A stretch of DNA of 47,572 bases, taken from positions 123,759 through 171,330 of IMG/VR virus record IMGVR_UViG_3300025310_000004. One strand, written 5' to 3'. Of this stretch, positions 4,720 through 25,949 are shown in pieces (position 1 is the first letter of the stretch; every line of letters begins with the position of its first letter). Both the position numbers and the translations under genes were made by a program. Under the pieces are notes generated by a model, which saw nothing but the letters and a program-made list of their open reading frames with translations, was not told the origin of the DNA and made no database searches. This stretch comes from a virus (Duplodnaviria; Heunggongvirae; Uroviricota; Caudoviricetes).

Positions 4720-5493
4720 GTGATCCTTGCAGACCACTCCCCATGGCACACCTGGGGTGAGACGATCGTTTGGATCGCAGGTGTAGCCACAGCCCTTGGC
4801 ATCATCTCGCGCACCAGGCCCGTCAAGTGGCTCTACCAGCAACTCGTGGGGAAGCCCGTCACCGAGTGGGGAAGCAAGGTCGTCGGTGACGTTGTTGAGG
4901 CCAAGGTCACACAGAACAACGGGGGGTCCTCACTCAAGGACCAGATCGATGGGCTGAACAGCAACCAAGCCGACATCAAGGCCGCTCTAGAGAACATCCA
5001 CACCTGTCTCGATACGCGCTTTGCCGACACCCATGAGCGCATGGAGAAGTTGACGGGCTACGCCGAGGAGGTGCTGGCTGAGGCCATCGGGGCCAAGGAG
5101 CGCATCCGGCAGTTGTACCGAGCCCTAGAGATTCCGGTGTTCGAGACGAACGCCCAGGGCTGGTGCACCTACGTCAACCCCGCCTACACCAAGATCACGG
5201 GCCTGTCGGTCGAGGACGCCTTGGGCGAGGGGTGGGCGGAGGCCCTTTATCCCGAAGATCGCACCAGGGTGTTCCGTTCGTGGGGACAGGCTGTTGAGGC
5301 TGGGGCCGAGTTCACTGCCGTCTACCGCTTCCGCAACACCCAGACGGGCAAGATGGTCGAGGTCAGGGGATCGGCCTCTCCACTCCATGACGCCCACCGC
5401 AACGTAGTCGGATGGGTGGGAACCCTGGACCTGATCCCAGAATCGACTAATCTGGTTGATGCCCAACCGGCCCAAGCCGTGGAGGAAGTATGA
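4720..5493 (+). CDS. Lysis-cassette membrane protein fused to a C-terminal PAS domain
   Basis: N-terminal TM helix (IVWIAGVATALGII), NGGSSLKD motif and coiled coil, then PAS signature (VFETNAQGWCTYVNPAYTKITGLS..DALGEGW...LYPEDR...YRF...G....V...ASP......GWVGT). Confidence 0.8.
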   Translation: MILADHSPWHTWGETIVWIAGVATALGIISRTRPVKWLYQQLVGKPVTEWGSKVVGDVVEAKVTQNNGGSSLKDQIDGLNSNQADIKAALENIHTCLDTRFADTHERMEKLTGYAEEVLAEAIGAKERIRQLYRALEIPVFETNAQGWCTYVNPAYTKITGLSVEDALGEGWAEALYPEDRTRVFRSWGQAVEAGAEFTAVYRFRNTQTGKMVEVRGSASPLHDAHRNVVGWVGTLDLIPESTNLVDAQPAQAVEEV

Positions 5494-5777
5494 GCGACAT
5501 CGGAACCCCGGTCGATACCAGCGGAAGTGGTGGCCCCATGCCACCTGACTTCGGCGCGGCCATCATCCGCACCGTGGTGCCCTACGCCACTGCCTTCGTC
5601 GTGGCCAAGTTGGCCGAGAACGGCATCGAGGCAGATGCGGCGGAGGTCAACGCCGCCGTCGTCACCATCGGTGGCTCGCTGTGGTACATGCTGGTGCGAG
5701 TCCTAGAGCAGCGCTGGCCCAAGGCTGGCTGGCTCCTGGGTAGCCCCAAGACCCCGACCTACTCCAAGCCTGAGTGA
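5490..5777 (+). CDS. Holin (actinophage type)
   Basis: 95 aa, two hydrophobic segments, IRTVVP...WY..VR.LE.RWP.AGWLLG pattern; follows tail module. Confidence 0.7.
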   Translation: MSDIGTPVDTSGSGGPMPPDFGAAIIRTVVPYATAFVVAKLAENGIEADAAEVNAAVVTIGGSLWYMLVRVLEQRWPKAGWLLGSPKTPTYSKPE

Positions 5778-5779
5778 AG

Positions 5780-6238
5780 ATGGGCAAGTACCGCGCAACT
5801 CTCAACATGCCCGAGGCCAAGCGTGGCCAGGTGGCCACCTTCGATGACACCGAGCCTCGCGTGATTCGCATGGTTCGTGATGGTCACCTCGTGCCGGTCG
5901 ATGTCTCACCTGAGGCCCTCGCCCGCATCGAGGAGGCCAAGAACAAGCCCGCCCCTGTTGCCACCGGATCGGTGGAGGCAGTGAAGCGGGCCTTGGAGGA
6001 GCGCCGTCGTGCCGCTGGCATCGGAACTGGTGGGGCCACCACCGAGGTGTCTACCGCCGTTCCGGTCGTGATGGCCCCCGAGGCCCCTGAGGAGGCCCCT
6101 GAGGCGCCTGAGGCGGTCGAGGAGGCCCCTGAGGCCCCCCAGGAGCCCGCCGACGACGAGAAGCCGACCTACGCCGGTTCTCGTGGCACGAGCCAGCCAG
6201 CCTCCAAGAAGTCGGCACCTCGCAAGCGGGGCAGGTAG
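5780..6238 (+). CDS. Hypothetical protein with Glu-Ala-Pro repeats and basic C-terminus
   Basis: ORF follows holin (GTG 5774 or ATG 5780); EAPEEAPEAPE low-complexity tract. Confidence 0.6.
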   Translation: MGKYRATLNMPEAKRGQVATFDDTEPRVIRMVRDGHLVPVDVSPEALARIEEAKNKPAPVATGSVEAVKRALEERRRAAGIGTGGATTEVSTAVPVVMAPEAPEEAPEAPEAVEEAPEAPQEPADDEKPTYAGSRGTSQPASKKSAPRKRGR

Positions 6239-6244
6239 GCGACC

Positions 6245-6439
6245 ATGGGCTGTGGATGCAACAAGGTCCGCACCTACTCTGAGAGCAACCCACTGATGCT
6301 CGGCGAGCCGGACGGCAACCCCCCGGTGAACGTCCGGGCAACCGTCGCGGTGATGGGTCTGCGGGCTGGATCGGAGTTCTGGGCGGCGGGGTCAGGCATC
6401 CCCGCGATGATCGATGCGGGGTGGCTCGTCGCCATCTGA
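6245..6439 (+). CDS. Small MGCGC-type phage protein
   Basis: 64 aa starting MGCGCNK, a recurrent N-terminus in actinophage small genes. Confidence 0.55.
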   Translation: MGCGCNKVRTYSESNPLMLGEPDGNPPVNVRATVAVMGLRAGSEFWAAGSGIPAMIDAGWLVAI

Positions 6440-11338: not shown

Positions 11339-12125
11339 GCACAACATTGTCGAGGGGCTCCGGCCCCTGATGTCTCCGATCGAGAACGTCATCCACCTTC
11401 CGGGGAACGCCCGTCGAGGGGATGTCGAGGCCATCAGCAAGTCACTGAATCGTTTTGGCCAACACAAGCCCATCGTGGTGCGTCGTACGGGGGTGGATGA
11501 GCGGGGGTTGCCTGTTGGTGAAATCCTGATTGGCAACCACACCACCATGGCGGCCCGGAGACTGGGGTGGGATTCGATCGCCGTGGTATGGGTCGATGAA
11601 AGCATGGATGTGGCCAAGGCGCGGGCACTTGCCGACAACCGCACCGCCGAGTTGGGCACCTACGACGACGACGCCCTAGCCGCGATGATCGCCGATGTCC
11701 TAGAGGCCGACGAGGCGCTCCTAGAGGACGCGTCCTACACCCTGGACGACCTAGAGGCGCTCCTGGGGGAGACGGCTGCTCCCGCCGACCTCGATGGCGA
11801 CGAGGACGACGAAGAAGAACAGCCCCCCGGCCCCAATCCGCTAGCCGATCGCAAGCGAGCCGAGGCACCAGCCACTCGCCATGCCACCTTGTCGCTGTTC
11901 GACCGCTTCTTGGTCCCACCATTCACCGTGCTCAACGCACGAGAGGGTTGGTGGCAGGAGCGCAAGAACACCTGGATCGATCTCGGCCTAGAGGGCGAGT
12001 TGGGGCGCGACGACAAGCCGCGCACTTGGTTCCTGGCTGCCCCCCAGCATCACCACCACCCTGATCGCCCGTTCGTGCCCTACGGCGCAGCCGATGAGCG
12101 CAAGCGAGAGGACGACGATGACTGA
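11331..12125 (+). CDS. ParB-like protein carrying the N-terminal segment of the phage methyltransferase family
   Basis: NARRGDVEAI..SL.RFGQ.KPIVV..GNHT..AA..LGW..ALADNRT; C-terminal FDRFLVPPFTVLNAREGWWQERK motif. Confidence 0.8.
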   Translation: MSKHNIVEGLRPLMSPIENVIHLPGNARRGDVEAISKSLNRFGQHKPIVVRRTGVDERGLPVGEILIGNHTTMAARRLGWDSIAVVWVDESMDVAKARALADNRTAELGTYDDDALAAMIADVLEADEALLEDASYTLDDLEALLGETAAPADLDGDEDDEEEQPPGPNPLADRKRAEAPATRHATLSLFDRFLVPPFTVLNAREGWWQERKNTWIDLGLEGELGRDDKPRTWFLAAPQHHHHPDRPFVPYGAADERKREDDDD

Positions 12126-13689
12126 CGTTGCCCCCGAGGCCACCGAACCCGACCTCCTCTACGGCGATGGCGCCACCTCGATCTTCGATCCGGTCCTATG
12201 CGAGATCGCGTATCGCTGGTTCTGCCCACCCAAGGGCCTGATCCTCGACCCCTTCGCTGGTGGATCAGTGCGTGGCATCGTGGCCGCCAAGTTGGGCAGG
12301 CGATATATCGGAATCGATATTCGCAAGGTGCAGATCGACGCCAACTACCAGCAAGCCAAGGACCTTCTCACGGATGGGCTGGGGATCGTTCCTGACACCC
12401 CGGACGATGACATGCCGGAGATGACCCCGGTTGAGTTCATGGCCGAGCGCGGCATCTGGCTCAAGCGCGAGGACAAGTACGTCTACGCCGGGGTGCGTGG
12501 TGCGAAGGTTCGCACCTGCATGCACTTCGTCGCCGAAGCCAAGCAGCGTGGCGTTGGCGTCGTGACGGCCGGAAGTCGGATGTCGCCCCAGGTCAACTTC
12601 GTTGCCCAGATCGCCTATCAGATGGGCGTGAAGTGCTCGGTGCACGTTCCCTCCGGGCCACTGACTCCCGAGTTGATCGCCGCTCGGGCTGCAGGGGCCA
12701 AGATCACCCAGCACGACTACGGGTACAACTCGGTCATCATCGCCAGGGCACGCGAGGACGCCGAGCAGCGCGGCTGGATCGAGATTCCCTACGGCATGGA
12801 ATCCCAAGAGGCGGTGGACTACACCAAGCCCCAGGTGGCGAACATCCCCGCCGAGGCCAAGAGGCTGGTCAACGCCTGCGGATCGGGCATGACGCTCGCT
12901 GGCATCTTGTGGGGGCTCAAGGAGTCTGGCCGAGAACTCCCCGTCACTGCCGTGTGCGTGGGCAATGTCCCCGAGGAGCGCCTTGATCGCTGGGCTCCAC
13001 CAGAGTGGCGCGAGATGGTCGAGATCATCGATGAGGAGTCCGACTACCACGTTGCGGCGACTCGTACTGATCTCGACGGCGTGTTGGTGGATGCCTACTA
13101 CGAGGCCAAGTGCATCCCCTATCTCCGTGAGGGCGACTGCCTCTGGATCAGCGCCATCCGCCCCTCTGCCGTGCCAGCCATCGCTCCCGATCCAGTCTGG
13201 ATCGAAGGTGACGGCAAGGACGTGATGGACCTCGTTGACGAGCGGGCCGACATGATCTTCACCTGCCCCCCGTATGGGGACTTGGAGGTCTACAGCGACG
13301 ACCCGAGGGACCTGTCCAACATGGACTACCCGGAGTTCATCGCTGCCTTCGAGGAGATCATGTGCAACTCGGCCAAGCGCCTTGCCGATGATCGGTTCGC
13401 CGTCGTGGTGGTCGGGGACTTCCGCGACAAGGACGGCTACTACTACGGCTTCCCCGCCGACACCGTGAAGATCATGGAGCGGGCTGGCCTGAGGCTCTAC
13501 AACGAGGCTGTGTTGGTGACCCACGCAGCCAGCCTTCCCCTGCGTGCTGGGCGTCAGTTCGACGCGACTCGCAAGATGGGCAAGACCCACCAGAACGTGC
13601 TCTGCTTCGTCAAGGGCGACCCCCGTAAAGCCACGCGCGCATGTGGGCCTGTGATCGCCATGGACACCTCGGAAGGACCGGGCGAATGA
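12118..13689 (+). CDS. Amino-DNA-methyltransferase-like protein with an inserted PLP-dependent (fold type II, ACC deaminase/D-cysteine desulfhydrase-like) domain
   Basis: TSIFDPVLCE, DPFAGGS (SAM motif, 12247-12264), insert about 12421-13160 (TPVE..WLKREDK..GAKVR; ACGSGMTLAG; DAYYEAK), then W..GD, FTCPPY (13258-13275), KTHQNVL.F.KG. Confidence 0.85.
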   Translation: MTDVAPEATEPDLLYGDGATSIFDPVLCEIAYRWFCPPKGLILDPFAGGSVRGIVAAKLGRRYIGIDIRKVQIDANYQQAKDLLTDGLGIVPDTPDDDMPEMTPVEFMAERGIWLKREDKYVYAGVRGAKVRTCMHFVAEAKQRGVGVVTAGSRMSPQVNFVAQIAYQMGVKCSVHVPSGPLTPELIAARAAGAKITQHDYGYNSVIIARAREDAEQRGWIEIPYGMESQEAVDYTKPQVANIPAEAKRLVNACGSGMTLAGILWGLKESGRELPVTAVCVGNVPEERLDRWAPPEWREMVEIIDEESDYHVAATRTDLDGVLVDAYYEAKCIPYLREGDCLWISAIRPSAVPAIAPDPVWIEGDGKDVMDLVDERADMIFTCPPYGDLEVYSDDPRDLSNMDYPEFIAAFEEIMCNSAKRLADDRFAVVVVGDFRDKDGYYYGFPADTVKIMERAGLRLYNEAVLVTHAASLPLRAGRQFDATRKMGKTHQNVLCFVKGDPRKATRACGPVIAMDTSEGPGE

Positions 13690-15018: not shown

Positions 15019-15037
15019 GTAGATCACACTCGACATG

Positions 15038-15059
15038 TGTCACAGAGACGTGATACTAT
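15038..15059 (+). promoter_or_regulatory. Box-N8-(-10) phage promoter (helicase, proximal)
   Basis: TGTCACAG agacgtga TACTAT. Confidence 0.75.
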
Positions 15060-15085
15060 GTCTGCAGACGAAGGGAGGTGCCTAC

Positions 15086-17932
15086 ATGAGCCAGATGTCC
15101 ATGGATTTGTTCGATTCCGAGCCGGAGCCGTCGGCCACGCCGACCCCGGTCGCCTCTGGAACGATCTCGCTGCGTCCTTACCAGGAGGAGGCGCTGGCAC
15201 ACATCGAGGAGGGGCGCCAGAGGGGCGTCCGCAAGCAACTCGGAGTTGCTGCTACGGGGCTGGGGAAAGGTTTGATGGTTGGGACCGAAGTTCTCAAGTC
15301 GGATGGCTCTTGGTGTCCGGTCGAGAATCTTGAGGTGGGCGACTTCGTGGTGGGGGTGGATGGTCAACCGACGAAGATCGAAGGGGTGTTTCCCCGAGGG
15401 GAACAGCCCTGCTTTGAGGTGACCACCGACGATGGAGCCTCTGTGGTGGTGGACGCAGACCATCTTTGGACGGTTGCCACCGATTCTGACATCACCCGCG
15501 GGCTCCCCTGGCGCACTCTGGAAACGGCCGACCTCTACTCTCGTGGCATCACCTCCCCTGAGGGGCGACGCCGATGGAGGCTTCCCGTTGTTGCACCCAT
15601 CGAATTTGATGCTCAACCGGAACTCCCGATCGATCCGTACATCCTCGGCGTCATCTTGGGGGACGGCTCCATCACCCAAGCCACCGTTGAGTTCTGTCCG
15701 GGGGACGCTTGGATCGCTGACAAGGTGGAGACCTTGTTGCCTGAGGGGTTCTCCCTGAGGCCCATCACCTCAGCAGATCGCGCCACCTCTTATCACATCA
15801 AGGACTCCGGTTCCTCTCGGGCGACACCCAACCGCATGAAGGGTGCCCTTGCCGATCTGGGTCTCTGGGGTCTCGGTTCGCTTGAGAAGTTCGTCCCCGA
15901 TGCCTACCTGACCGCCTCTGTCGCGGACCGTAGGGCACTGTTGGCTGGGTTGATGGATTGTGACGGGTGGGCTGGCAAGTCCACAGTGCAGTTCACCACG
16001 TCGTCGCCACGCCTGGCATCTGACGTGAAGCGACTCGCCGAGTCTCTCGGGACCATTGTCCGCGTTGGCAGCAAAATCCCCACCTACACCTACGGGGACG
16101 AGAAACTGCGGGGGGCGCGCGCCTACGCCGTGAATCTTCGTGGAGGTGGATGCCCCTTCACGCTGCCCCGCAAGGTAGATGCATGGGCGCAGACCAAGCG
16201 GCTCGGCGCTACCCGCAAGATCGAATCCATCGTGCCGGTGGGGCCACGAGAGACGGTGTGTATCAAGGTGTCGGCCGACGATGGCCTGTTCGTCACCGAG
16301 CATCACATCGTCACTCACAACACCATCATGTTCTCCGCCCTGGCGCAGCGCATGAACGTTCCCACCCTGGTGCTCGCTCATCGTGATGAGTTGATCTCCC
16401 AGGCCGCCGACAAGATGCGCCAGGTCTGGCCTGGCGCCGACATCGGCGTGGTCAAGGCAGAGCGCAACGAGATCGATCATCAGGTCGTCGTGGCGAGCGT
16501 CCAGACGCTTGCCCGTTCCAGCCGCCGCGATCAGATTCCCGCCGACAAGTTCGGGCTGGTGATCATCGATGAGGCACACCACGCCAAGGCAGTGTCCTAC
16601 ACCAACATCATCGAGCACCTGAATGCTGGCGATGAGGACGGCCCGCTCCTGGTCGGCGTGACAGCCACGCCAGACCGCGGCGACGGCAAGGGCCTGGTGG
16701 ATGTGTTCGATGAGATCACCTTCACCTACGACATGCTGTGGGGCATCCGCTCCGGCTACCTGAGTGACCTGCGTGGCCTGCGCGTCCACCTCGATGCCGA
16801 CTTCTCCAAGGTCAAGATTCGCAAGGGCGACTACGACGCTGGCCAGGCCGGGCAGATGCTCGAAGATGCAGACGCCCCCTCCCTGATCGCCGACGCGTGG
16901 ATCAAGTACGCGCAGGACCGCAAGACCCTGGTGTTCACCCCCACGGTTGCCACTGCAGAGATGGTCACCGCCGAGTTGGTTGGCCGGGGCGTGAGTGCAT
17001 CGATGGTGTCCGGCGAGACTCCCATCGATGAGCGACGAGACATCCTCGCTCGCTACGCCAAGGGTGAGATCAGGGTCATCGCCAACTGCGCCGTTCTCAC
17101 CGAGGGTTTCGATGACCCCGGCACCTCGTGCATCGTGGTTGCTCGACCCACGCAGTCACGGGCTCTCTACACCCAGATGATCGGGCGCGGCACTCGCCGC
17201 CACCCCGACAAGCATGACTGCCTCGTCATCGATGTCGTTGGCGCATCGGCCAACCATTCGCTGGTGACCATCCCGTCGCTGTTTGGCATCAAGAAGGAGA
17301 ACCCCTTCGAGAACGCCGAGCGCACCGTGGCCGAGGCCATGGATGAGCAGGTCGAGGACGAGATCAAGCGCGGTGAACTCAAGGCCACCGAGGCTGACCT
17401 GTTCCGCAAGGTTCTCGACTCCCCCATCGCCTGGGTGCACTACAGCAACCGCATGTCTCAGACCTGCTACCTGTGCGGCCTTGGTGACAAGGAAGTCGGC
17501 TCCGTTGTCATCGAGCCCATCCCCTACGACGTGAGTCAGCCAGCGGAAGCGCCGACTCGCTACCACTGCTTCCAGCAGTGGGAGGACAACTTCGTTCCGG
17601 TAGGCCAGCCTGGCATCACCATGCGTCCTGATGGCTCTGGCTTCCGCACCCTGATCACCAACGTGGACCTTGAGATGGCTCAGGGTGTGGGTGAGGACTT
17701 CATCCGCAAGAACGGTGCTGCGGCACTCACAGATCGCAACGCCGCATGGCGCAAGGCGAAGCCTTCCCAGAAGCAGTTGGATTTCGCTGAGAACTTGGGC
17801 ATCGTTGTCGATCCTTCGTGGGACAAGGGGCAGGTCAGTGATGCCATCAGCGCCAAGAAGGAAGCCATCAATGACCGTCGCCGCAATCGCCCCGCATGGG
17901 CGAAGAACAAGGGAAGGAACAACCGTCGATGA
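15086..17932 (+). CDS. Superfamily 2 (DEAH/Res-like) helicase with intein
   Basis: LRPYQ, Walker A ATGLGK|T, IIDEAHH, TATP, LTEGFD, QMIGRGTR. Confidence 0.92.
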   Translation: MSQMSMDLFDSEPEPSATPTPVASGTISLRPYQEEALAHIEEGRQRGVRKQLGVAATGLGKGLMVGTEVLKSDGSWCPVENLEVGDFVVGVDGQPTKIEGVFPRGEQPCFEVTTDDGASVVVDADHLWTVATDSDITRGLPWRTLETADLYSRGITSPEGRRRWRLPVVAPIEFDAQPELPIDPYILGVILGDGSITQATVEFCPGDAWIADKVETLLPEGFSLRPITSADRATSYHIKDSGSSRATPNRMKGALADLGLWGLGSLEKFVPDAYLTASVADRRALLAGLMDCDGWAGKSTVQFTTSSPRLASDVKRLAESLGTIVRVGSKIPTYTYGDEKLRGARAYAVNLRGGGCPFTLPRKVDAWAQTKRLGATRKIESIVPVGPRETVCIKVSADDGLFVTEHHIVTHNTIMFSALAQRMNVPTLVLAHRDELISQAADKMRQVWPGADIGVVKAERNEIDHQVVVASVQTLARSSRRDQIPADKFGLVIIDEAHHAKAVSYTNIIEHLNAGDEDGPLLVGVTATPDRGDGKGLVDVFDEITFTYDMLWGIRSGYLSDLRGLRVHLDADFSKVKIRKGDYDAGQAGQMLEDADAPSLIADAWIKYAQDRKTLVFTPTVATAEMVTAELVGRGVSASMVSGETPIDERRDILARYAKGEIRVIANCAVLTEGFDDPGTSCIVVARPTQSRALYTQMIGRGTRRHPDKHDCLVIDVVGASANHSLVTIPSLFGIKKENPFENAERTVAEAMDEQVEDEIKRGELKATEADLFRKVLDSPIAWVHYSNRMSQTCYLCGLGDKEVGSVVIEPIPYDVSQPAEAPTRYHCFQQWEDNFVPVGQPGITMRPDGSGFRTLITNVDLEMAQGVGEDFIRKNGAAALTDRNAAWRKAKPSQKQLDFAENLGIVVDPSWDKGQVSDAISAKKEAINDRRRNRPAWAKNKGRNNRR
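15269..16321 (+). mobile_element. Class 3 intein with LAGLIDADG endonuclease in helicase Walker A (351 aa, starts with Gly)
   Basis: Removal restores GKT; DADHLW (block B Trp), TVCIKV (block F Cys), VTHN|T; LGDG and LAGLMDCDG motifs. Confidence 0.88.
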
Positions 17933-20802: not shown

Positions 20803-20912
20803 TGCCAGGTGGAGCAGGAAAGGCCAAGAGGTCGTGCCCCATGTGCAAGCCTTACAAGTTCGCGGGCAACATTCGTAGGTTGACCGAGAAGGTTGATCTC
20901 GATGAGCGATGA
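20802..20912 (+). CDS. 36-aa CxxC peptide between terS and terL (not in ORF track)
   Basis: MPGGAGKAKRSCPMCKPYKFAGNIRRLTEKVDLDER; TGATG-coupled to terS, overlaps terL start. Confidence 0.5.
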   Translation: MPGGAGKAKRSCPMCKPYKFAGNIRRLTEKVDLDER

Positions 20913-23900
20913 GCACACCGGCTTCGTAGCGATCCCTCCCGATCTCCTGGCCCACGCCACAGCCGAGGAGCGCGAGGCGTACTACCAGTACCTCCTTGGC
21001 AACGTCATCGCCGCGGATGAGTGGGAACCGTGGATCAGGATGATCTTCCCCCAGGTGGCGGAGAAGCCGTTCTCTGAGGGTCACCAGAAGTTCTGGGAAT
21101 GGGTCTGGCAGGTCGAGCCAGGCACTCGCCCCAAGCCATGGGTGTCGATCTGGCCTCGTGGTCATGGTAAGCGCCTAAAGAGTTCGACACCAATCCTCAC
21201 GACGGAGGGGTGGACGACGCAAGGACAACTCAACATTGGCGACGAGGTGTTTGGACCAGACGGAACCCCAGCCGCCGTCACATGGGTTGGACCAGAAACG
21301 ATGCGCCCCCTCTACAGGGTTCGGTTCACTGACGGGACCGAACTCGTTGCCGATCCCGAGCACGAATGGACGGTGCTGGATCGCGGGCCATACGAGTGGC
21401 GCACGCTTGAGACTCAGGAGATCGCAGCGCAGCGGTACTACTCGGGCGGGCGCGCCAGGTTCATGCTGCCACATCGAGATGCTATTCAGGCGCCACGTCG
21501 AGACCTGTTGATCGACCCCTACCTGCTCGGCTACTGGCTAGGCGACGGAAACCACAAGACTGGTGTGCTGGCCGCTGGCTCGATGGATGACGCTAATGAG
21601 GTTGCACTCAACATCGAGTCCCGTGGCGAGTTGATCAAGAACCGCTACACGCAGGCCAACACGGGATGCAACTACATCGTCATTGACGGTCTACGCAATC
21701 GGCTATCCGCGCTCGGCCTTCTTGGCAACAAGCACATTCCCAGCGGCTACCTCACCTCATCCGAGGAGCAGCGGCGTGCACTTCTGGCCGGGCTGGTCGA
21801 TTCCGATGGACACGTTGACAAGAAGCGCGGCAGGGTCCGCTACGTGTCGCACGACCAGACTCTCGCTGAGGCGGTTCGACTGCTCGCCAGGACGCTTGGC
21901 TACAACGCCACCGTCTGGAGTGAAATCGATGATCGTGAGCCACATCCCGTCACCGATCTAGATGGCGTCGTGACGATGGTGTCTACGGCTGGCACTCGAT
22001 GGGTTGCATCATGGACACCACACGACGGTCTCGGCCAAGGGATGCTCGCCAGGAAGGTTGTCCCCACCTACGCCAAGCGCCAGCGGGTTGGGATTGAGTC
22101 GATCACCCCGGTCGAGTCAGAACCCGGCCTCTGTATCGAGGTCGATCGTGATGATGGCCTCTACCTTGCCGGTAGCGACCTGATCCCCACCCACAATTCC
22201 ACCTCGTCGGAGTTGGCCGTCGTCGTGCTCGCCGCACGTCGCAAGCGTCGCTACGGCATCTACGTCTCCGAGACGCAGGACCAGGCCGACGACCACGTTG
22301 CCAATGTGGCTGCCATGTTGGAGTCGCCCACGATCGAGTTGGCCTACCCCGACCTCGGTGAGCGCCTCATGGGCAAGTTCGGAACGTCCAAGGGCTGGCG
22401 GCGCAACCGCATCCGTACCAAGACCGGCTTCACCCTCGATGCCATGGGCCTCGACTCCGCTGCCCGAGGCGTCAAGTTGGAGGACCAGCGTCCCGACTTC
22501 ATGGTCTTTGACGACATCGATGGCGAGTTGGACACCGATGAGCGCGTCGAGAAGAAGATCAAGACCATCACCCGCAAGTTGCTCCCGGCTGGTTCTCAGG
22601 ACTGCGCCATCTTGATGGTGCAGAACCTCGTGCACGAGAACTCGATCTTCGCTCGCCTCTCGGATGGTCGGGCCGACTTCCTGCGTGACCGCATCGTCTC
22701 TGGCCCAATCCCTGCCATCTGGGACCTTGAGTACGAGGAACTAGAGGGGAAGTTCGTCATCACGGGCGGTGAGCCATCGTGGCCCGAGGGATTCCCTATC
22801 CCGTCGTGCCAGTTGCTCATGAACGACATTGGCCTCTCCGCCTTCCTGGCCGAGTGCCAGCACGAGACGAAGCCACCCGAGGGCGACATCTTCAACCACA
22901 TCGCCTTCGTGCGCGTCGAGCACCACGAGGTTCCGCCGCTTCGTCGTGCGGTGGTGTGGGTTGACCCTGCCGTCACCTCCACCGACTCGTCGGACTCCAT
23001 GGGCATCCAATGTGATGGGCTCGGAGTGGACGACAAGATTTACCGCCTGTTCTCGTGGGAGAACCGCTCGACGCCGTACCGAGCCATCCACCTCGCGATC
23101 GAGAAGGCCCTTGAGTACGGAGCCGACACCGTGGGTGTCGAGACGAACCAGGGTGGCGACCTGTGGCGAGTGGTGTACGACCAGGCATGTGAGGACATCC
23201 GCAACGAGCGCGGTGACCGCCACATGAAGATGCCCCGCTACCGCCAGGAGAAGGCCACCGCTGACCTCGGATCGAAGGTCACTCGCGCTGAGCGCATGTT
23301 GGTGGACTACGAGCGTGGCCTATTCGTACACGTCGAGGGAACTCACCACACGTTGGAGATGGCGCTACGCCGGTTCCCCAAGGTCAAGCCGTTCGACCTC
23401 GTAGACGCCTGCCTGGTGGCTGGCACCCTCGTGGCCACTCCCGACGGGGAGGTGCCGATCGAGTCGATCGTCCCAGGGGATTTCGTCTGGACGCGTCAGG
23501 GGGCGAAGCGTGTTCTCAACGCCGGGCCGACGCGGTTCGATGCCGAGGTCTACGAACTCGTCACGGAAGATGGACGCTCGGTGGTGGGAACCGGAGACCA
23601 TCTTGTCTGGACCCATGAGTGTGGATGGGTTCCATTGGCCCTCGCTGCCGGGCTGACTGTCAGTATTGGCTCATGGACCATCCCGTCGAGGTTGAATACG
23701 CCGGTCGGCGCTATCGCCGCTATCCCAATGCCAAACAGCGCAGCCATCGGGTCTACTACGTGCCCCTCGGGCCAGGGGATCGAATCTACTTGCACCGAAA
23801 GGTCTACATCGATCACTTCGGCCCGATTCCCGAGGGGTGGCATGTTCACCACGTCGATGGTGACCCCTTCAACAACGACCCCGGAAATCTCAGGGCCATT

Positions 23901-24486
23901 TCACCAGGGGAACATCGTTCAACCCATGGGTCAACATGGACAGACCCATCCGACATGGAACGGCATCTCGCAGCCATCCGAACCTTGGCCGCCAAGTGGC
24001 ACGGATCGCCAGAAGGGCTCCAATGGCATTCCGACCACGGACGCTCATCCTGGGAGGGCCGAGCCGAGCATCAACTCCAATGTGTTTGGTGTGGAGAGGC
24101 ATTCTCGTCGCTTGTGGCTTCCACGGGGTTCTGCTCTCAGCGATGCCGATACCGGAAGTTCGAGGCCGATGAATCAAACAAGGACGCCCGGACCTGCGAG
24201 GAGTGCGGAGGCGGGTTCCTCGCTGAACGACGGAAGGCCACCCGCTTTTGCGGCGTCACTTGTCGTAATCGTTCAACCTCGCGGAAGCAGCGCCGTGGTG
24301 TATGACCTGGAAGTTGAGGACGCTCACGAGTTCTTGGCTGATGGGGTTGTTGTGCACAACTGCTATTGGTCGTGGGCCTACTTGGCCGGGCCACTTCACC
24401 GTCGCAAGGCGAAGGTGCGTTCCTCGGCTCGCAAGTACCTCAATGCCGCCGTTGGCATCGGCAACGCTCCTGCCGGGTTCGGCTAG
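20902..24486 (+). CDS. terL: Terminase large subunit with two inteins
   Basis: Walker A PRGHGK|ST, Walker B FDDID, nuclease VDPA and VETNQGG, FP...DLVDA|C. Confidence 0.92.
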   Translation: MSDEHTGFVAIPPDLLAHATAEEREAYYQYLLGNVIAADEWEPWIRMIFPQVAEKPFSEGHQKFWEWVWQVEPGTRPKPWVSIWPRGHGKRLKSSTPILTTEGWTTQGQLNIGDEVFGPDGTPAAVTWVGPETMRPLYRVRFTDGTELVADPEHEWTVLDRGPYEWRTLETQEIAAQRYYSGGRARFMLPHRDAIQAPRRDLLIDPYLLGYWLGDGNHKTGVLAAGSMDDANEVALNIESRGELIKNRYTQANTGCNYIVIDGLRNRLSALGLLGNKHIPSGYLTSSEEQRRALLAGLVDSDGHVDKKRGRVRYVSHDQTLAEAVRLLARTLGYNATVWSEIDDREPHPVTDLDGVVTMVSTAGTRWVASWTPHDGLGQGMLARKVVPTYAKRQRVGIESITPVESEPGLCIEVDRDDGLYLAGSDLIPTHNSTSSELAVVVLAARRKRRYGIYVSETQDQADDHVANVAAMLESPTIELAYPDLGERLMGKFGTSKGWRRNRIRTKTGFTLDAMGLDSAARGVKLEDQRPDFMVFDDIDGELDTDERVEKKIKTITRKLLPAGSQDCAILMVQNLVHENSIFARLSDGRADFLRDRIVSGPIPAIWDLEYEELEGKFVITGGEPSWPEGFPIPSCQLLMNDIGLSAFLAECQHETKPPEGDIFNHIAFVRVEHHEVPPLRRAVVWVDPAVTSTDSSDSMGIQCDGLGVDDKIYRLFSWENRSTPYRAIHLAIEKALEYGADTVGVETNQGGDLWRVVYDQACEDIRNERGDRHMKMPRYRQEKATADLGSKVTRAERMLVDYERGLFVHVEGTHHTLEMALRRFPKVKPFDLVDACLVAGTLVATPDGEVPIESIVPGDFVWTRQGAKRVLNAGPTRFDAEVYELVTEDGRSVVGTGDHLVWTHECGWVPLALAAGLTVSIGSWTIPSRLNTPVGAIAAIPMPNSAAIGSTTCPSGQGIESTCTERSTSITSARFPRGGMFTTSMVTPSTTTPEISGPFHQGNIVQPMGQHGQTHPTWNGISQPSEPWPPSGTDRQKGSNGIPTTDAHPGRAEPSINSNVFGVERHSRRLWLPRGSALSDADTGSSRPMNQTRTPGPARSAEAGSSLNDGRPPAFAASLVVIVQPRGSSAVVYDLEVEDAHEFLADGVVVHNCYWSWAYLAGPLHRRKAKVRSSARKYLNAAVGIGNAPAGFG
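21172..22197 (+). mobile_element. Class 3 intein with LAGLIDADG endonuclease in TerL Walker A (342 aa, starts with Arg)
   Basis: Removal restores GKS; DPEHEW, LCIEV, PTHN|S; LGDG and LAGLVDSDG motifs. Confidence 0.88.
23410..24360 (+). mobile_element. Class 1 intein in TerL nuclease domain, with no in-frame endonuclease
   Basis: CLVAGTLV start, TGDH block B, VYDLEV block F, VVHN|C end; middle about 200 codons are S/T/P/G-rich and lack recognisable motifs. Confidence 0.88.
23673..24305 (+). CDS. HNH endonuclease nested out of frame inside the second TerL intein
   Basis: YLHRKVY..HFGPIPEGWHVHHVDGDPFNNDPGNL..EH plus two CxxC/FCxxxC zinc modules; alternative starts 23619 and 23625. Confidence 0.88.
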   Translation: MDHPVEVEYAGRRYRRYPNAKQRSHRVYYVPLGPGDRIYLHRKVYIDHFGPIPEGWHVHHVDGDPFNNDPGNLRAISPGEHRSTHGSTWTDPSDMERHLAAIRTLAAKWHGSPEGLQWHSDHGRSSWEGRAEHQLQCVWCGEAFSSLVASTGFCSQRCRYRKFEADESNKDARTCEECGGGFLAERRKATRFCGVTCRNRSTSRKQRRGV

Positions 24487-24800: not shown

Positions 24801-25949
24801 TCAGGTGACGGTTGCCGTCCAAGCCTTGGTCCAGGTGGTCGGGCCGACGATGCCATCAACGGCGAGGCCCTTCTCCTGCTGGAACTTGAGGGCAACCTGG
24901 CGGCTCTGCTCGCCGAAGATGCCATCCACGTCGATCTTCCAGCCGCGGTTCTTCATCTGCTGCTGCCACTGACGCACGTCGTCGCCACGCATGAGCGGCG
25001 ACTGCACCATGAGGTAGCGGCCGGGCCACGGGGGAGCGGCCGGAGCCGGAGCCGGAGCGGGGGTGCCTCCACCCATGCCGGAGGGCTTCCAGTTGGTGGC
25101 CTCGGCGTTGTCCATCGAGGCGAGCGACGCGGGGCCGACGATGCCATCGACCTCCAAGCCACGAGCCTGCTGGAACCAGCGAGTGATGCCGTCGGTCAGC
25201 GATCCGAAGATGCCGTCCGCTGCGATCCAGTAGCCACGGCCAGCAAGCCGGGACTGCCAGCGGTGAACGTCCTCGCCCTGCATGCCCTTCTTGAGCAGGC
25301 GGGGTCCGGTCGGGGCTGGCGGCGGCGGAGGGGGCGGTGGCTGGGGTGCGGCACCACCGAGGCTCGCCTTGGCGTGCTCGATGATCCGGGCCATGTTGAT
25401 CTTGCCGCCGTCCCAATGGTCGTTCTCGGGGACGTGCTGATGCCAGCAGGTCCCATCGAAGCCAACCCAAGCGGAGTAGGAGAGCCGCTGGGGGGCGTGA
25501 GGGGTGGCGATGGTGCCGTCCTGGGGACCCTTGGTCGCAGGAGCGTTGTCGAGATCGAGCGGGACGCCAGCGCGCACGAGGTCGGCGATGTGCTCACCGA
25601 TGAAGCGCAGCCACTCGTCGGGCCAATTGGGCGTCTCGGCAGCGCGACCGCAAATCTCGGTCTGCACGGCGAAGGCCCGGTTCGTCTCGACGCCACCGCT
25701 CATGTTCTTGAGAGCGGCGGAGGCCCACTCGGTGGGGATGAACTGCGCCTTGCGGCCGTTGGCCGGGTCGATGCAGAAGTGGGGCGTCGAGCACGGACGG
25801 CCACGGAAGAAGGCGATGACGCCATCGATCGTGCCGGGGTTGGACTCGGTGGTGTGGCCAACCCATCGCCAGGGATGCCCCGACTTGTAGGTGCCTGGGC
25901 CGGTGCAGCCCAGAATCTCGTGGCGCTCGTAGCCCGGTAGCCATGCCAT
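24801..25949 (-). CDS. Endolysin: amidase-like domain plus two peptidoglycan-binding (PG_binding_1-like) domains
   Basis: HTTE..TPHF..ASAALKN..AVQTEICG..QHVPENDHWD; Pro linkers; two G.DV..WQ..L...DG.FG..T...FQ...GL.VDGIVGP repeats. Confidence 0.88.
   Translation of the reverse strand: MAWLPGYERHEILGCTGPGTYKSGHPWRWVGHTTESNPGTIDGVIAFFRGRPCSTPHFCIDPANGRKAQFIPTEWASAALKNMSGGVETNRAFAVQTEICGRAAETPNWPDEWLRFIGEHIADLVRAGVPLDLDNAPATKGPQDGTIATPHAPQRLSYSAWVGFDGTCWHQHVPENDHWDGGKINMARIIEHAKASLGGAAPQPPPPPPPPAPTGPRLLKKGMQGEDVHRWQSRLAGRGYWIAADGIFGSLTDGITRWFQQARGLEVDGIVGPASLASMDNAEATNWKPSGMGGGTPAPAPAPAAPPWPGRYLMVQSPLMRGDDVRQWQQQMKNRGWKIDVDGIFGEQSRQVALKFQQEKGLAVDGIVGPTTWTKAWTATVT

Follow-up and report, generated by a model that had tools for sequence, protein, structure and literature searches.

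A PAS domain joined to a putative single-pass lysis membrane protein in a conserved phage gene block

The moment at which a phage lyses its host is commonly regarded as set by the holin allele, and the few known adjustable lysis timers, namely lysis inhibition in T4 and probably the system of phiKZ, respond to superinfection. In both phages, T of T4 with its antiholin RI (PMC11413866) and gp142 of phiKZ with gp143 (PMC12894885), the class III holin has a regulatory soluble domain. In actinophages, lysis membrane proteins have been described in pairs, in which LysF1b and LysA2b are single-pass proteins of N-out/C-in orientation, assigned to DUF2746 by HHpred, and LysF1a and LysA2a are two-helix proteins (PMC13056207; bioRxiv 10.64898/2026.08.27.747656). 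In the LysF1a/LysF1b and LysA2a/LysA2b systems, both of them tested, lysis is delayed and crippled when the single-pass protein is lost; this protein has been proposed to activate its two-helix companion, and the pair is synergistically toxic (PMC13056207; bioRxiv 10.64898/2026.08.27.747656). In some cluster A mycobacteriophages such a pair of one-helix and two-helix proteins lies after the tape measure/minor tail genes, and the lysin is encoded at another place (PMC13056207; bioRxiv 10.64898/2026.08.27.747656). In the literature that we found, nothing relevant connects a PAS domain with a holin, an endolysin or a lysis cassette. Here we describe a phage gene in which a PAS domain is fused to a putative membrane protein of lysis, a combination which is real, conserved and undescribed in that literature.

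The virus record is 171 kb long with a GC of 64%. Its final 47.6 kb form the window, i.e. the whole stretch of DNA that was analysed, and the features of the window are collected in Table 1. Two genes for WhiB-family regulators outside the window (G000 62866-63057 and 81691-81873, in genome coordinates) indicate an actinobacterial host. Some further observations concern the genome at large. The gene at 12094-13689 resembles DNA methylases and also encodes a PLP-enzyme (PALP) domain; it stands between ParB-like genes and is kept in four relatives (L005, L007, L011, L100); inteins with LAGLIDADG domains are found in a helicase (15035-17932) and in a large terminase-like gene (20893-24486); and the 87 bases with which the genome begins (G000 position 1) recur exactly at 170002 (window ~46244), 1.3 kb before the end, which is not a full terminal repeat.

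Table 1. Positions of the PAS gene, its parts, its neighbours and the endolysin gene in the window
Feature	Position	Strand	Basis
TM-coiled-coil-PAS gene, 257 aa	4720..5493	+	ORF call, Pfam, AlphaFold2, homologue search
Single N-terminal membrane helix (predicted), residues ~13-30	4756..4809	+	AlphaFold2, charge distribution
Amphipathic helix, basic, Trp-rich, residues 33-64	4816..4911	+	alignment, AlphaFold2
NGGSSLKD motif, residues 67-74	4918..4941	+	alignment
Coiled coil, residues 72-136 (65 residues), continuous helix with heptad pattern, running straight into PAS	4933..5127	+	AlphaFold2, alignment
H-x-C motif (H94, C96) inside the coil	4999..5007	+	alignment
Complete PAS domain, residues 127-236/240	~5098..5439	+	Pfam, Foldseek, alignment
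Two-helix membrane protein, 95 aa, holin-like / LysF1a-like	5490..5777	+	family searches, hairpin fold, alignment
Third block gene, 154 aa, conserved N-terminal ~70 aa (MGKYR-type N-terminus), acidic/Pro-rich tail	5774..6238	+	
Fourth block gene, 64 aa, begins MGCGC	6245..6439	+	
Probable endolysin, amidase-like N-terminal domain and two peptidoglycan-binding domains	24801..25949	-	PG_binding_1 E 5e-26

The PAS gene lies 3' of the minor tail genes and starts with GTG, preceded by GAGGAG 7 nt upstream; consensus scans found neither a promoter nor a convincing terminator. An initial annotation, made from the sequence, had read its product as a membrane helix, an NGGSSLKD motif, a coiled coil and a complete PAS domain with no output domain, and Pfam, AlphaFold and Foldseek all agree with this architecture. 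In the AlphaFold2 model the protein consists of a helix at residues 9-30, a second one at 33-64, one long helix at 72-136 and a confident PAS fold. The membrane helix is rich in Gly and Ala and moderate in hydrophobicity. Lys and Arg residues number on average 3.5 after it versus 0.3 before it, with an excess after it in 45/45 members, so that an N-out/C-in orientation with a cytoplasmic PAS domain is predicted, which gives an answer to the topology question raised by the annotation. In the amphipathic helix W37, P46 and W50 are conserved. The NGGSSLKD motif, which is common to many short PAS-less phage membrane proteins and aligns with the motif V-x-N-x4-L-R-D/E of DUF2746, is found in 28 of the 46 family members and so would not seem essential. 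The coiled coil varies in length in its first half, and its H-x-C motif, retained by 44/46 members including the PAS-less homologue P0043, is a possible metal or disulfide/redox site in an oligomer. The cytoplasmic part is ~31% charged, at the low end among LysF1b-like proteins. Behind the PAS domain the protein ends after 17 residues, and across 44 family members the last-strand PAS motif is followed by no more than 8-33 residues, hence an output domain has not been lost through truncation; neither Pfam nor comparison with homologues found in this protein the output domain of a sensor kinase or cyclase (HisKA, GGDEF, HTH).

The domain itself belongs to the PAS superfamily, with Pfam matches to PAS_3 (E 2.6e-17) and PAS (E 1.3e-15) both above cut-off, an AlphaFold pLDDT of 93-97 across it, and Foldseek matches to PAS/LOV folds; it is the sole PAS_3 match in the whole genome. 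Aligned with E. coli Aer, DosP and ~100 cellular domains, it falls into the common G-x-G-W...H-P-E-D-R subtype, matching residue for residue, and its core residues W172, W188, F198, R203, G217, A219 and G234 match the PAS domains of cellular multi-PAS proteins. The nearest solved sequences by profile are the PAS repeats of phytochromes, which are not known to bear a cofactor. In the same alignment the LOV Cys (GxNCRFLQ motif) is absent, with GEGWAEAL at that place and no Cys across 44 members; the F-alpha heme His of FixL/DosP is absent, the DosP column being occupied by V184; and the FAD pair of Aer/NifL (F-alpha Trp, G-beta Asn) is absent, with F204 in the Asn column and W188 one position ahead of the Aer Trp column, a placement from sequence alignment in which a shift of one residue is conceivable. 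The PAS domain is intact and canonical, but since these known residues are missing, sensing of light, of oxygen through heme or of redox through FAD by the known routes is not supported. The H(P)(D/E)D...R motif that marks cluster 8 in the PAS classification of Xing et al. 2023 (PMC10468136) is present in 27/44 members, the window having Y for H, and clusters bearing motifs of the G-x-G-W...H-P-E-D-R type are largely unstudied according to the same authors (PMC10468136). Mean column conservation of the domain is 69%, equal to that of the rest of the protein, and dN/dS of 0.03-0.31 in unsaturated pairs indicates purifying selection. In a quick tree with 60 cellular PAS domains, those of the phages form one side of a branch with support 98, which is consistent with an old capture.

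Full-length relatives number 43, with 39 at 41-78% identity and 4 more distant, and all family members are 226-312 aa long, ending at most 33 residues past the last PAS strand motif. Neither 50,697 GenBank phages nor the GTDB genomes gave any family match, so neither set provides a cultured host or a prophage for the family. Searching for shorter forms returned a single fragment, and for longer fusions, sought among representatives, the long proteins matched the PAS domain and at most part of the coil. Weak metagenome matches (L031-L096) were rejected as family members, as those examined are mostly long cellular signalling proteins.

The stop of the PAS gene and the start of the 95-aa gene share an ATGA at 5490-5493, the four-nucleotide overlap with a small downstream gene to which the annotation had drawn attention. 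The gene 3' of the 95-aa gene overlaps in the same way, and because four-base overlaps are common in these operons, the ATGA alone is weak evidence for functional pairing. Synteny, which the annotation had proposed to examine, bears out the association: in 15/15 distinct loci having downstream DNA, the PAS gene is followed immediately by a homologue of the 95-aa gene. The 95-aa protein has the predicted fold of a two-helix hairpin, with two hydrophobic segments in 15/15 aligned members; it belongs to phrog_10742 and matches at 0.93 an Atlas cluster auto-named 'putative Holin', and Phage_holin_10 is matched by 5/15 members of its family (best E 4e-4), none above the Pfam cut-off. The gene is likely a holin, as it had been labelled, but the family-level evidence is suggestive and stays below every curated threshold. 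No sequence similarity to D29 LysA2a was found. A dual-start motif was considered and rejected, as Met17 is not conserved, and a complex prediction for the PAS and 95-aa proteins scored 0.00 and was counted neither way. In Arthrobacter phage Bridgette a homologue of the 95-aa gene comes directly after the gene for lysin A, and in Streptomyces phage KimJongPhill one is the last gene of the tail module. Behind this two-helix homologue in KimJongPhill (L098:5330-5578) comes a coiled-coil protein whose C-terminus has a hydrophobic segment, i.e. a different type of partner in the same module.

The pair is usually followed by two further conserved small genes, the third and fourth of the block, which gave no family match and whose products are candidate cytoplasmic partners of the pair. 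They accompany it in nearly all loci, even in L009, where the PAS and two-helix genes differ: the PAS-less homologue P0043 occupies the same slot there, ahead of an unrelated small hydrophobic gene.

The probable endolysin, with 31% identity to the annotated amidase endolysin of KimJongPhill (E 1e-15), is encoded on the opposite strand at a distance of 19 kb from the pair; its gene adjoins the terminase, as it does in two close relatives (L113, L114). It has neither a hydrophobic leader nor an adjoining membrane gene, so an exporter would have to be encoded elsewhere in the genome. At three loci (L004, L008, L027), which are probably one lineage, the four-gene block is followed, on its own strand, by a homologue of this lysin. 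The lysin is thus inverted beside the terminase in the clade of the window versus directly after the membrane-gene block in the other clade, and its C-terminal domain differs in relatives. The annotation had set the PAS gene in a lysis cassette; the link to lysis holds on comparative evidence, but no endolysin adjoins the pair here, hence the cassette is not a complete one.

Further comparative evidence comes from proteins found with the N-terminal half of the PAS protein as query, which are short and PAS-less, consist of a membrane helix, NGGSSLRD and a coil, and are encoded directly 3' of a probable M15/VldE-type lysin. A wider scan gave 67 distinct proteins with the motif, of which 62 have no PAS domain and 5 carry a divergent one. 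By BLAST a lysin is encoded no more than three genes away from at least 12 of the 62, a raw count that includes many near relatives, and the same caution goes for their other neighbours by Pfam, which are CHAP (n=9), NlpC/P60 (n=2), GH25 (n=1) and M15 (n=1). One of the short relatives weakly matches PHROG 404 ('minor tail protein'). Among the five divergent fusions, an endolysin lies a few genes before one (L229), an Rz-like spanin two genes before another (L232), and for two of them no neighbour is recognisable as a lysis gene. The fusion in L236 (2501-3067) lies between an 825-aa gene and terS-terL in a T7-like arrangement; the slot directly before terS-terL is the holin position of T7. With no small two-helix neighbour and no separate small holin gene visible, the L236 product is the strongest candidate for a PAS protein that serves as the holin. 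In addition, structure searches found several virus-only clusters of helix-plus-PAS proteins of 165-240 aa, so this architecture is widespread in phages.

A further claim in the annotation was a likeness to DUF2746, the family of D29 gp30. The PAS protein itself has no match to Pfam PF10874 (DUF2746), and with a DUF2746-type HMM the mean score of the PAS family equals that of reversed sequences; direct profile comparison of the PAS family with DUF2746 likewise gives nothing significant. The short PAS-less relatives score 15-20 bits versus at most 4.7 for shuffles and 6-12 for reversed sequences, and one of them matches DUF2746 at E 0.081. By hhalign, these relatives align with DUF2746 on V-x-N-x4-L-R-D/E (P 2e-4, probability 45%). 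What stands of the claim is a weak, transitive relationship, by which the PAS protein may be connected to DUF2746 through its short relatives.

A role of some kind in lysis is quite likely for the PAS protein, and we favour with moderate confidence the reading that it is a LysF1b-type single-pass, lysis-promoting protein which works together with its two-helix partner and to which a cytoplasmic PAS domain was added. The pair fits the actinophage pattern of a single-pass and a two-helix protein in topology, coupling and position. A single-pass lysis protein with a short outside N-terminus, a membrane helix, basic residues and a cytoplasmic coil would have acquired the PAS domain and would be co-translated with the LysF1a-like protein; late in infection the two proteins would build up in the membrane, where the single-pass one would trigger or activate the lesion through which the distantly encoded endolysin is released. 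The PAS domain at the end of the coil might act backwards along it, setting the readiness for oligomerisation or for engaging the partner, and so shift the time of lysis by way of a small-molecule ligand, a binding protein or its own dimerisation. The annotation had spoken of a holin and its regulator. The link to lysis stands, but the roles are probably otherwise, since in the tested actinophage systems the single-pass protein is the lysis-critical one: it would be a LysF1b-like trigger or activator instead of an accessory to a complete holin.

How the PAS domain contributes is less clear. True signal gating of lysis by it is a tentative idea, to which we give less than even weight. In its specific form the domain would bind a host metabolite or report redox or energy state and gate hole formation directly through the coiled coil, which is possible but doubtful; the protein would then be a one-component, transcription-independent sensor of the lysis timer, and a TM-NGGSS-coil-PAS class of such sensors would be widespread in unrelated phages, a proposal that we hold just as tentatively. 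A purely structural or protein-docking PAS domain is a sub-case of the LysF1b-type reading, its probability counted inside, and is as likely as signal gating. The lack of any known cofactor residue and the nearness to phytochrome repeats, which are not known to hold one, speak for it, as do the two conserved small cytoplasmic genes 3' of the pair, which could supply partners, and the precedent of phiKZ (PMC12894885); on the other hand, the core residues are those of cellular multi-PAS proteins, and PAS-less relatives already own a coiled coil for oligomerising. An antiholin or lysis-inhibition factor, i.e. a PAS protein keeping the two-helix holin inactive until a signal arrives, would suit the upstream position of the coupled PAS gene, and T4 and phiKZ do control lysis through a soluble domain. 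Yet the single-pass protein promotes lysis in the tested actinophage pairs, where its deletion delays and cripples lysis, and the L236 homologue sits in a holin slot with no small two-helix neighbour, so we consider the antiholin reading improbable.

Readings that leave lysis aside have little probability as well. The place of the PAS gene after the minor tail genes, the distant lysin in the window's genome and the PHROG 404 match of a short relative would agree with a tail or membrane-contact component of the virion, or with a superinfection-exclusion protein; but this slot is the usual place of actinophage lysis membrane genes, the protein is a membrane anchor with a predicted cytoplasmic PAS domain, and its relatives adjoin lysins, which makes such a role unlikely. 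We give still less credit to a membrane-tethered PAS domain that poisons host sensor dimers as a decoy or modulator of host PAS kinases or cyclases, an option raised in the initial annotation. The PAS type is common in cellular signalling proteins and the phage genome encodes no response regulator of its own; however, the phage PAS domains are a long-separated group tracking no host protein, the gene has a late-operon position, and PAS-less relatives of the N-terminal half are encoded next to lysins. The idea gained no specific support.

The joining of a PAS domain to such a protein suggests that the phage may adjust lysis timing to the internal state of its host. If true, a holin-type protein with a cytoplasmic PAS domain would let a phage trade burst size against timing by host physiology, and would make a large, unstudied subtype of PAS accessible to research. 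Phages deleted for lysF1b and lysA2b exist and accept heterologous single-pass proteins, and natural versions with and without PAS are available.

Among known systems, VqmA of vibriophage VP882, with PAS and DNA-binding domains, is likewise a phage-encoded receptor of PAS type which ties a host signal to the lysis decision, but it is soluble and works as a transcription factor at the switch between lysis and lysogeny, whereas the PAS protein has no output domain and is predicted to be membrane-bound and made late. T4 T and phiKZ gp142 are single-pass lysis proteins with a globular domain that controls their timing, as is proposed for the PAS protein, and T-type holins appear among the weak structural matches (E 0.015 and 0.12). 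The soluble, GAF-like domain of T4 T is periplasmic in an N-in/C-out protein, in contrast to the predicted N-out/C-in orientation and cytoplasmic PAS domain here; gp142 has an N-terminal cytoplasmic helical domain, and neither holin is reported with PAS. The closest likeness is to LysF1b (Girr gp35, NormanBulbieJr gp33), D29 LysA2b (gp30) and Waterfoul gp32, which share with the PAS protein one N-terminal membrane helix, a predicted N-out/C-in orientation with basic residues after the helix, a charged helical cytoplasmic tail, a similar V-x-N-x4-L-R-D/E motif and an associated two-helix gene, ATGA-coupled, after the minor tail genes, the lysin in some cases lying elsewhere. Unlike these proteins of 88-150 aa, it has 257 aa, an extra amphipathic helix, the H-x-C motif, a whole PAS domain and less charge, and its gene lies upstream of the two-helix gene, whereas LysF1b-type genes lie downstream of theirs. 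The 95-aa protein, for its part, differs from LysF1a and LysA2a in being without detectable similarity to D29 LysA2a and in its own phrog_10742 and Atlas 'putative holin' membership, and resembles them as a small helical hairpin with both ends predicted inside, coupled to a single-pass protein.
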